From assembly GCF_013167455.1 (NCBI RefSeq), contig NZ_CP038328.1: a stretch of 64,000 nucleotides of DNA; one strand, 5' to 3'. Numbering within the stretch: position 1 is the stretch's first letter; the number at the start of each line of letters is the position of its first letter. This document shows, in pieces, positions 37,901 through 40,900 of the stretch. The position numbers are program-made. Origin of the DNA: Escherichia coli O157:H7 (lineage in GTDB: Bacteria; Pseudomonadota; Gammaproteobacteria; Enterobacterales; Enterobacteriaceae).

Positions 37901-40900
37901 AGGACCAACAGCGGCAAATGTTTATCTCTCTTAATATGACGCTGCTTGTTTAAAGCTGACTGGTTTTATTGGCATAGTTCAATAGTCAACACCATGTATT
38001 ATAACACAAGTTACTTTTTCACCGGAAAACTAATCCATTTAACCGAATATCTCTACAACTAATAGTTATAAATGCCACTTAACAGCGAGTTATAGTACCA
38101 CTTGAAACTATATTGCCAACAATAGTTAATAGCTTTCTTAACAATTTTCTTATCTTTAATTTGTATTTTGCTAAGATTTATCTTATGCTCACAGGTCGTA
38201 TTTCCAGAGGGGAATAGTTAACAATCTTATATTTCCCTCTGCGCGCCTTTCTCACCCGCTGTATATAGTGCAAGTGGTATGAGGAAAGGGAGATTTCACA
38301 AGGATGTTATACTCAAAGTAGACAATCCTGATCTCAAGCGTACGTATTGTCCATGCGATGAATAAAGGAAAAGTTATGAAACACAAGCTTTCTGCAATCC
38401 TTATGGCCTTCATGTTGACGACGCCAGCTGCGTTTGCTGCCCCTGAAGCAGCAAACGGGACCGAGGCAACGACGGGTACTACTGGCACCACAACGACCAC
38501 TACCGGTGCAACCACGACGGCTGCTACCACTGGTGGCGTGGCTGCTGGCGCTGTCGGCACGGCGACAGTTGTCGGTGTGGCAACGGCTGTTGGTGTGGCG
38601 ACGTTGGCAGTAGTTGCAGCAAATGACAGTGGCGATGGCGGTTCTCATAACACCTCAACCACCACGTCCACTACGCGCTAATTCTGCTTAAACGCGTCGA
38701 AATTAAAGTTAAATAATACCCGGTTGCGATATTCGTACCGGGCTTTAGAGATTTGCATTTTTTTAATTAACCTTTCAAGGATTAAAGGTGCGCCCTCTTA
38801 TTTTATCGATTTTCGCACTATTTCTTGCGGGATGTACGCACAGCCAGCAAAGTATGGTCGATACATTTCGCGCCAGCCTTTTCGATAATCAGGATATCAC
38901 CGTAGCGGATCAGCAGATCCAGGCGTTGCCTTATTCCACGATGTATTTACGCCTTAATGAAGGGCAACGAATCTTTGTGGTACTGGGATATATAGAACAA
39001 GAACAAAGCAAATGGTTATCCCAGGATAACGCCATGCTGGTTACCCACAATGGACGTCTTTTAAAGACCGTCAAACTTAATAATAATCTGCTGGAAGTGA
39101 CAAATTCCGGGCAGGACCCTCTGCGTAACGCGCTGGCAATAAAAGACGGCAGCCGCTGGACGCGCGATATTCTCTGGAGTGAAGACAACCATTTTCGCTC
39201 TGCGACCCTGAGTTCCACTTTTTCCTTTGCTGGATTAGAGACGCTGCATATTGCGGGTCGCGATGTGCTGTGTAATGTCTGGCAGGAAGAGGTGACTTCC
39301 ACGCTACCAGAAAAACAGTGGCAAAACACATTCTGGGTCGATTCGGCTACTGGCCAGGTTCGTCAAAGTCGGCAAATGTTAGGCGCAGGGGTTATTCCCG
39401 TAGAAATGACGTTTCTTAAACCCGCACCATGAATAAATTACAGTCGTATTTCATTGCCAGCGTACTTTACGTAATGACACCCCATGCCTTTGCGCAAGGA
39501 ACGGTGACTATTTATCTGCCTGGCGAACAACAGACACTTTCCGTTGGCCCCGTGGAGAATGTTGCCCAGTTAGTGACACAACCGCAACTGCGCGATCGCC
39601 TCTGGTGGCCTGGTGCCCTGCTGACCGACTCCGCGGTGAAAGCTAAAGCGCTTAAAGACTACCAACATGTCATGGCACAGCTTGCTTCCTGGGAAGCAGA
39701 AGCTGACGACGATGTGGCGGCAACGATTAAATCCGTGCGCCAGCAGTTACTCAATCTCAATATTACTGGTCGCTTACCGGTCAAACTGGACCCTGATTTT
39801 GTACGAGTGGATGAGAACAGCAATCCCCCGCTGGTCGGGAACTATACGCTCTATACCGTACAGCGCCCGGTGACTATTACTCTTCTGGGTGCGGTTTCTG
39901 GGGCTGGGCAATTGCCCTGGCAGGCAGGCCGTAGCGTTACCGATTATCTGCAAGATCACCCCCGTCTTGCAGGCGCGGACAAGAATAACGTTATCGTGAT
40001 TACGCCTGAGGGTGAGACTGTCGTCGCCCCTGTTGCCCTGTGGAATAAAAGACATGTGGAACCACCGCCTGGCAGCCAGCTTTGGTTAGGCTTTTCTGCG
40101 CATGTACTGCCCGAAAAATATGCTGATTTAAATGACCAGATTGTGTCTGTTTTAACGCAACGTGTTCCTGACTGATGAAGAAGAATTCTTATCTTTTAAG
40201 CTGCCTGGCCATTGCCGTCTCCAGTGCCTGTCATGCTGAAGTATTAACCTACCCGGATCCGCTGGGTTCGTCGCAATCGGACTTTGGCGGCACAGGATTG
40301 TTGCAGATGCCAAATGCGCGCATCGCACCGGAAGGTGAATTCAGCGTCAACTACCGGGATAACGATCAATACCGTTTCTACTCCACCTCCGTGGCGCTGT
40401 TCCCATGGCTGGAAGGCACCATTCGTTATACGGATGTGCGCACACGTAAATATAGCCAGTGGGAAGATTTCAGCGGCGATCAGTCATACAAAGACAAATC
40501 ATTCGATTTTAAACTTCGCCTGTGGGAAGAAGGTTACTGGCTACCGCAAGTGGCGTTTGGTAAACGTGATATTGCTGGTACGGGTCTGTTTGACGGTGAG
40601 TATCTGGTGGCCAGCAAGCAAGCGGGGCCATTTGATTTCACCCTCGGGATGGCATGGGGCTACGCCGGTAATGCGGGCAATATTACCAACCCGTTTTGCC
40701 GGGTGAGCGATAAATATTGTCATCGCGCAGAGTCTCACGATGCGGGCGATATCAGCTTTAGCGATATCTTTCGTGGCCCGGCTTCCATCTTTGGCGGCAT
40801 TGAGTATCAAACGCCGTGGAATCCCCTGCGTCTGAAACTCGAATACGACGGCAACAATTACCAGAATGATTTCGCTGGCAAACTGCCTCAGGCAAGCCAT

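Follow-up and report, generated by a model that had tools for sequence, protein, structure and literature searches.

The gfc operon for the group 4 capsule of an Escherichia coli O157:H7 strain and its uninterrupted cspH-gfcA spacer

An O-antigen (group 4) capsule is described for EPEC, EHEC and Shigella (PMC8592465), and the closest described system to the locus considered here is the gfcABCDE-etp-etk operon of EPEC O127:H6 strain E2348/69, which is experimentally required for the capsule (Peleg 2005; Larson et al. 2021, PMC8592465). Two further systems are paralogous to this operon but distinct from it, being situated at other loci and devoted to other polymers: 1) the wza-wzb-wzc genes of the group 1 capsule and colanic acid, whose products Wza, Wzb and Wzc share domain types with GfcE, Etp and Etk; and 2) the yjbEFGH exopolysaccharide operon, with GfcB and GfcD belonging to the YjbF and YjbH Pfam families. 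The contrast between K-12, where an IS1 sits in the ymc (gfc) promoter, and pathogenic strains, from which this element is absent, is already published (Peleg 2005, as restated in PMC2516531), and a further account locates IS1D in the gfcA promoter region of K-12 (PMC12428005). The group 4 capsule of O157:H7 has likewise been documented before (PMC8592465, 10.64898/2026.07.23.740414).

Here we compare with these systems the gfc locus of an O157:H7 strain contained in a 64-kb stretch of DNA, the whole of which is referred to below as the window. With sequence integrity, collinearity, an empty IS1 target site and its population frequency as observed, we consider it very probable that the locus is an ordinary wild-type allele of the O157:H7 group 4 capsule export operon, with a spacer in which no insertion sequence has ever landed.

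Gene content of the operon and of the window

The operon occupies positions 38376-46090 with the gene order gfcA-gfcB-gfcC-gfcD-gfcE-etp-etk, all on the + strand, and is flanked by cspH and appA (46210-47514, - strand). The 5' neighbor cspH (37722-37934, + strand; from the ORF list and the RefSeq annotation of an identical O157:H7 record) has a TTG start and encodes a cold-shock-like protein with 100% identity to its K-12 and EPEC counterparts. The first gene of the operon, gfcA (ymcD; 38376-38681, +), codes for a threonine-rich protein of 101 aa (28% Thr) that is 98% identical to GfcA of EPEC and K-12. GfcA finds no Pfam match because of its low-complexity sequence; GfcA-D as a whole are described as corresponding to YjbE-H (PMC8592465). 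It is followed by gfcB (ymcC; 38788-39432, +), encoding a YjbF-family lipoprotein (PF11102, E = 7e-69; 99.5% identity to EPEC), gfcC (ymcB; 39429-40175, +), encoding the periplasmic GfcC with its N- and C-terminal domains (PF20616 and PF06251; 97.6% identity to EPEC), and gfcD (ymcA; 40175-42271, +), encoding a YjbH-family outer-membrane protein (PF06082, E = 3e-270; 99.4% identity to EPEC). The gfcE gene (yccZ; 42317-43456, +) specifies a Wza-like outer-membrane polysaccharide export protein with the Poly_export, SLBB and Wza_C domains of Pfam, and etp (43444-43890, +) a low molecular weight (LMW) tyrosine phosphatase with the LMWPc domain; both proteins are identical in K-12 and EPEC. The last gene, etk (43910-46090, +), encodes a BY-type protein-tyrosine kinase and polysaccharide co-polymerase (Pfam Wzz, WZC_N, GNVR and AAA_31; 99.6% identity to EPEC). 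The Pfam scores of the six gfc-etk proteins that have matches are far above the curated cut-offs. Reading of the translations further revealed the CX5R motif, D119 and Y121 of Etp, as well as the Walker A GKT (K545), Y574 and the C-terminal tyrosine cluster of Etk.

The intergenic gaps within gfcA-etk range from -13 to 106 bp, and such overlapping or short junctions fit a single operon. All seven genes are free of internal stops and equal in length to their orthologs in K-12 and EPEC E2348/69, and the proteins show 97.6-100% identity to those of the latter strain (0-6 substitutions each, with five of the seven differing by 1-6). These features bear out the claim of the preliminary description that gfcABCDE-etp-etk is intact and co-oriented, as every gene is full-length, on the + strand and endowed with the expected domains and catalytic motifs. 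In its gene order, domains, intact ORFs, catalytic residues and a regulatory region contiguous with gfcA, the locus has the characteristics of a group 4 capsule operon.

The window agrees with EPEC E2348/69 in the order and orientation of all seven genes, and in both strains a spacer of 441 bp separates cspH from gfcA. Between the two, GfcE and Etp show no difference and the remaining five proteins are 97.6-99.6% identical, whereas the spacer is only 93.7% identical. The exported polymer would also differ, consisting of O157 repeat units in the window strain as opposed to O127 units in EPEC; K-12 is without O-antigen. The K-12 MG1655 locus has the same full-length genes, with proteins 98-100% identical, between the same flanking cspH and appA, and differs by an IS1D, oriented opposite to gfcA, and a 9-bp duplication.

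The ymcDCBA-yccZ-etp-etk locus of O157:H7 reference strains has the same sequence as the window, with O157:H7 genomes, among them several complete ones, giving a 100% match to a 1-kb cspH-gfcA query. Strain PV15-279 of this serotype is collinear with the window throughout; identity is 99.9% over positions 1 to about 57980 and 98.2% in the final 6.5 kb, a segment in which the two have different numbers of tccP2 repeats. The gfcD of PV15-279 shows two synonymous differences from that of the window. At the 3' end of the window, the strain-variable prophage/tccP2 junction matches that of the O157:H7 strains ECP19-598, 17B6-2, G5295 and FRIK1989 at 100% identity (8.5 kb compared).

Several other features of the window were recorded. 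Its 3' end (56418-64000) is the end of a lambdoid prophage adjoining tRNA-Ser(tga) (56418-56505); it contains tccP2, whose 141-bp repeat is present in 5.3 copies (57368-58120), a copy number unlike that of PV15-279, along with a fragment of EspV, tail-fibre genes, Lom and a tail-tip J gene that is frameshifted. The wrbA gene (about 21190-21790) aligns collinearly with its intact counterpart in PV15-279, indicating that no prophage is inserted there in the window strain. As wrbA is the Stx2 phage site in the reference strains Sakai and EDL933, the Stx phage of the window strain, if there is any, would reside elsewhere. Between putP and efeU lies an ORF of 447 aa (6835-8178, +), annotated only as a hypothetical protein in O157:H7, in which a stretch of about 48 aa that ends in ...AR(N/S)YLK..G is repeated internally three times; a search against Pfam and NCBIfam gave no match at E <= 0.01. 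This ORF and efeU are about 1.1 kb apart, without a long ORF between them. In the annotation of a near-identical O157:H7 record both ymcE (about 36820-37050, - strand, beside cspG/ymcF/gnsA) and yccE (about 23600-24860) are frameshifted pseudogenes. The Rfam cspA thermoregulator matches the leader and gene start of cspG (37170-37592, - strand) with 150.9 bits (E = 6e-40), and no comparable Rfam match was obtained for cspH.

The cspH-gfcA spacer and the empty IS1 site

The intergenic region between cspH and gfcA (37935-38375, + strand), which holds the regulatory region of the gfc operon, is 441 bp long and uninterrupted in alignments with K-12 and EPEC, and is AT-rich (35% GC as against 52% for the window). 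The preliminary description had given precisely this length and these bounds, and had noted that the region carries no insertion sequence, in full agreement with the present analysis. Direct reading of the sequence shows a Shine-Dalgarno-like AAGGA (38365-38369, +), located 6 nt before the gfcA ATG.

In K-12 MG1655 the distance between cspH and gfcA is 1218 bp, equivalent to 441 bp plus 768 bp of IS1D and 9 bp of target duplication; the annotation of this spacer reads 'IS1-like element IS1D family transposase' and places it on the other strand from gfcA. BLAST comparison of the window spacer with that of K-12 aligns positions 1-417 and 409-441 of the former as two blocks in collinear order. 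The 768-bp IS1D is flanked by the duplicated 9-mer CGTATTGTC and is inserted between the equivalents of window positions 38351 and 38352, that is, 24 bp upstream of the gfcA ATG. The presence of an IS1 upstream of gfcA in K-12, which the preliminary description had stated, is thereby established, in agreement with two published accounts (PMC12428005, PMC2516531).

The same 9-mer occurs a single time in the window, at 38343-38351 (+), where comparison with K-12 and a motif search identify it as the empty IS1 target site. IS1 terminal repeats were not found anywhere in the 64-kb window with up to 3 mismatches allowed, and neither an IS remnant nor a duplicated target site was found in the spacer. 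An alignment of 37935-38375 with K-12, proposed earlier as a check, is collinear on both sides of the IS1 and gives no indication of an IS remnant in the window. Thus, with a 441-bp spacer, one copy of the 9-mer and no IS1 ends, the window does not carry the K-12-type interrupted allele. A chance test is inapplicable to the empty site, as the absence of an IS is the default state.

The spacers of O157, of EPEC O127:H6 and of K-12 minus its IS1 are each 441 bp and align end to end without gaps, and six further alleles are 440-441 bp long. The length is therefore constant across nine E. coli alleles of different lineages (440-441 bp, K-12 being counted without its IS1), which indicates that the window spacer has no other insertion or deletion. 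Its only repeats are two inverted ones and three short direct matches of two copies each, all of them lacking the features of an IS or MITE. Rfam, searched with a permissive E-value over 36.5-47.5 kb, gave no match in the spacer, and elsewhere in this interval only the cspG-leader thermoregulator and sub-threshold matches.

To place the empty site in its population context, 5426 complete E. coli genomes were surveyed, a genome being counted as gfc-bearing if it contains the 200 bp centered on the K-12 insertion point. This segment is present in 3615 genomes, and in 3180 of them (about 88%) its 200 bp are contiguous, i.e. the site is empty. The K-12-type junction between flank and IS1 was found in 401 of the 3615 (about 11%), including MG1655, and these are expected to be mostly K-12 derivatives. 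The operon is absent from about 1800 genomes, approximately a third of the total, and in these cspH directly adjoins appA. The uninterrupted promoter is the ancestral and majority state, with K-12 as the exception, its IS1D insertion being derived and lineage-restricted. As the majority wild-type state, the empty site is no distinguishing mark of the window strain.

The survey also brought up individual cases of note. The operon-less genomes include ST131 and other human extraintestinal isolates. In RM14721 (dog) gfcA is truncated by an IS1A-type element that inserted independently, about 49 bp downstream of the K-12 position, and gfcD is annotated as partial, while FDN-24 (chicken) combines the K-12 IS1D junction with a frameshifted gfcC. 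From these two strains it seems that the gfc locus has been inactivated repeatedly and that IS1 has struck this short segment more than once.

Spacer variation and candidate regulatory elements

A strict scan of the spacer for sigma-70 promoters and terminators detected neither on the + strand, with counts not above those in shuffled sequences. A relaxed sigma-70 scan yielded weak candidates only, the best of which in conserved sequence is a predicted extended -10 element, TGTTATACT (38305-38313, +), in the most conserved part of the spacer. The last 100 nt of the spacer (38276-38375) have only 2 variable sites across the nine alleles, and this conserved stretch holds both TGTTATACT and the K-12 IS1 target. 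The putative promoter of the operon is accordingly placed within the spacer by prediction, and if it is indeed represented by 38305-38313, the K-12 IS1 lies in the 5' leader. In K-12 the AAGGA motif stays with gfcA on the 3' side of IS1, and all sequence upstream of the element is displaced by 777 bp. IS1 is polar, and its insertion separates the conserved promoter-proximal segment from the gfcA ribosome-binding site by 777 bp of polar IS DNA. Polarity of an IS1 situated in the 5' leader would account for the lost expression in K-12, and we infer that this is the mode of the block. The preliminary description stated that the element silences the K-12 operon; this is the accepted view, but the silencing is not absolute, as K-12 shows etk-dependent phenotypes despite the IS1 (PMC2516531).

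A repeat search also identified a conserved inverted repeat (38205-38241, +) with 12-bp arms, CAGAGGGGAATA and TATTTCCCTCTG, separated by a 13-nt loop. Its predicted RNA fold has an energy of -16.5 kcal/mol (z = -3.2), its right arm is invariant in the nine alleles, and two of the three substitutions found in it preserve RNA pairing. It is not followed by a T-run and the terminator scan was negative at this point; the lack of a T-run indicates that it is not a canonical terminator. The repeat could be a structure of the cspH 3'-end, a structure of the gfcA leader or an operator for a protein. The fold of the putative gfcA leader (38315-38400) does not exceed shuffled sequence in stability (z = -0.18).

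Between lineages the spacer alleles differ by about 6%, as against 1-2% for the flanking genes, and the O157 allele is 93.7% identical to both the K-12 and the EPEC alleles. Variation among the nine alleles is concentrated in the cspH-proximal half. In the O157 spacer eight substitutions are absent from the 8 other alleles (37973, 37997, 38024, 38026, 38055, 38087, 38115 and 38194), and only the last of these falls in the promoter-proximal half. Four additional positions (38252, 38253, 38260 and 38275) differ from both EPEC and K-12, and are held in common only with the closest allele, that of strain 100181. The possibility that the divergence of the spacer (93.7% compared with 98-99% for the genes) is an anomaly was considered and rejected, because the alleles group like the known lineages and the changes are cspH-proximal. 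As a rough estimate, the divergence is near the level of silent sites between E. coli lineages.

Expression and capsule formation in O157:H7

In the window strain, transcripts started in the spacer could run straight into gfcA-etk. Together with a Wzy-dependent O157 O-unit pathway encoded elsewhere, the operon could in this way form a group 4 capsule by exporting O-antigen polymer. The Wzx/Wzy O-antigen supply is presumed because the window is identical to O157:H7 genomes, and the corresponding cluster lies outside the 64 kb. The requirement of the operon for capsule and the production of capsule by O157:H7 are extended to the window strain by analogy with other strains studied in the literature, such as the O157:H7 reported to make a group 4 capsule in PMC8592465, which cites Shifrin 2008. 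The suggestion of the preliminary description that the strain may make such a capsule has to be read in this light: an intact promoter permits expression but is no guarantee of a capsule, and expression is condition-dependent according to the literature.

The main alternative is that O157:H7, although its operon is intact, transcribes it at too low a level for a capsule to be made in most conditions, leaving it effectively silent, either because the AT-rich spacer is repressed (e.g. by nucleoid proteins or the virulence regulon) or because of O157-specific promoter substitutions; the absence of IS1 would then say little about the phenotype. In N-minimal medium, EHEC gfcA mRNA was about 30-fold below that of EPEC and no capsule was visible in EHEC by negative staining (PMC3853201), and the O157:H7 capsule is reported to be regulated inversely to the type III secretion system (PMC8592465). 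The low GC content of the spacer points the same way, as do the eight O157-only substitutions, with 38194 in the promoter-proximal half, and the four shared only with strain 100181. However, RB-TnSeq in four O157:H7 strains showed that disruption of gfc-etk abolishes infection by 11 myoviruses, and etk and gfcE mutants were individually validated for this phage phenotype (2026 preprint, 10.64898/2026.07.23.740414), which implies that the operon is expressed and functional in laboratory-grown O157:H7. A gfcB (ymcC) mutant of O157:H7 was moreover found in a bovine colonization screen (PMC8592465). We accordingly regard a silent operon as unlikely. A narrower proposal, that the O157-lineage spacer substitutions, or the 38205-38241 hairpin acting as an operator or leader element, cause the approximately 30-fold lower gfcA expression of EHEC, appears to us more doubtful still; were it true, it would represent a previously undescribed cis-regulatory tuning of capsule level between pathotypes.

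It might also be argued that the main role of the genes in O157:H7 is not capsule export, but signaling through Etk/Etp tyrosine phosphorylation (Ugd, polymyxin resistance) or virulence regulation. Etk phosphorylates Ugd and has been linked to polymyxin resistance even in K-12 (PMC2516531), and phosphotyrosine proteome papers tie Etk to EHEC virulence. Such a role does not exclude capsule export, and the phage phenotype common to the gfcE and etk mutants of O157:H7 points to an exported polymer, making signaling as the principal function decidedly improbable. Disruption of the promoter region in another manner, whether through the remnant of an IS, a deletion or some small mobile element overlooked earlier, is refuted by the alignments, which are free of gaps. 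Nothing was found in its favor, the 440-441 bp alleles, the missing IS1 ends, the single 9-mer, the lack of an Rfam match and the repeats devoid of IS or MITE character also speak against it, and it retains only a negligible probability. An ordinary wild-type allele of the group 4 capsule export operon hence remains by far the most probable interpretation of the locus.

The finding of an uninterrupted promoter region is thus correct but ordinary, and carries little weight as a discovery, although it is useful as a point of annotation. The population count shows K-12 to be the outlier with respect to this operon, and hence a poor model for the outer surface of E. coli.
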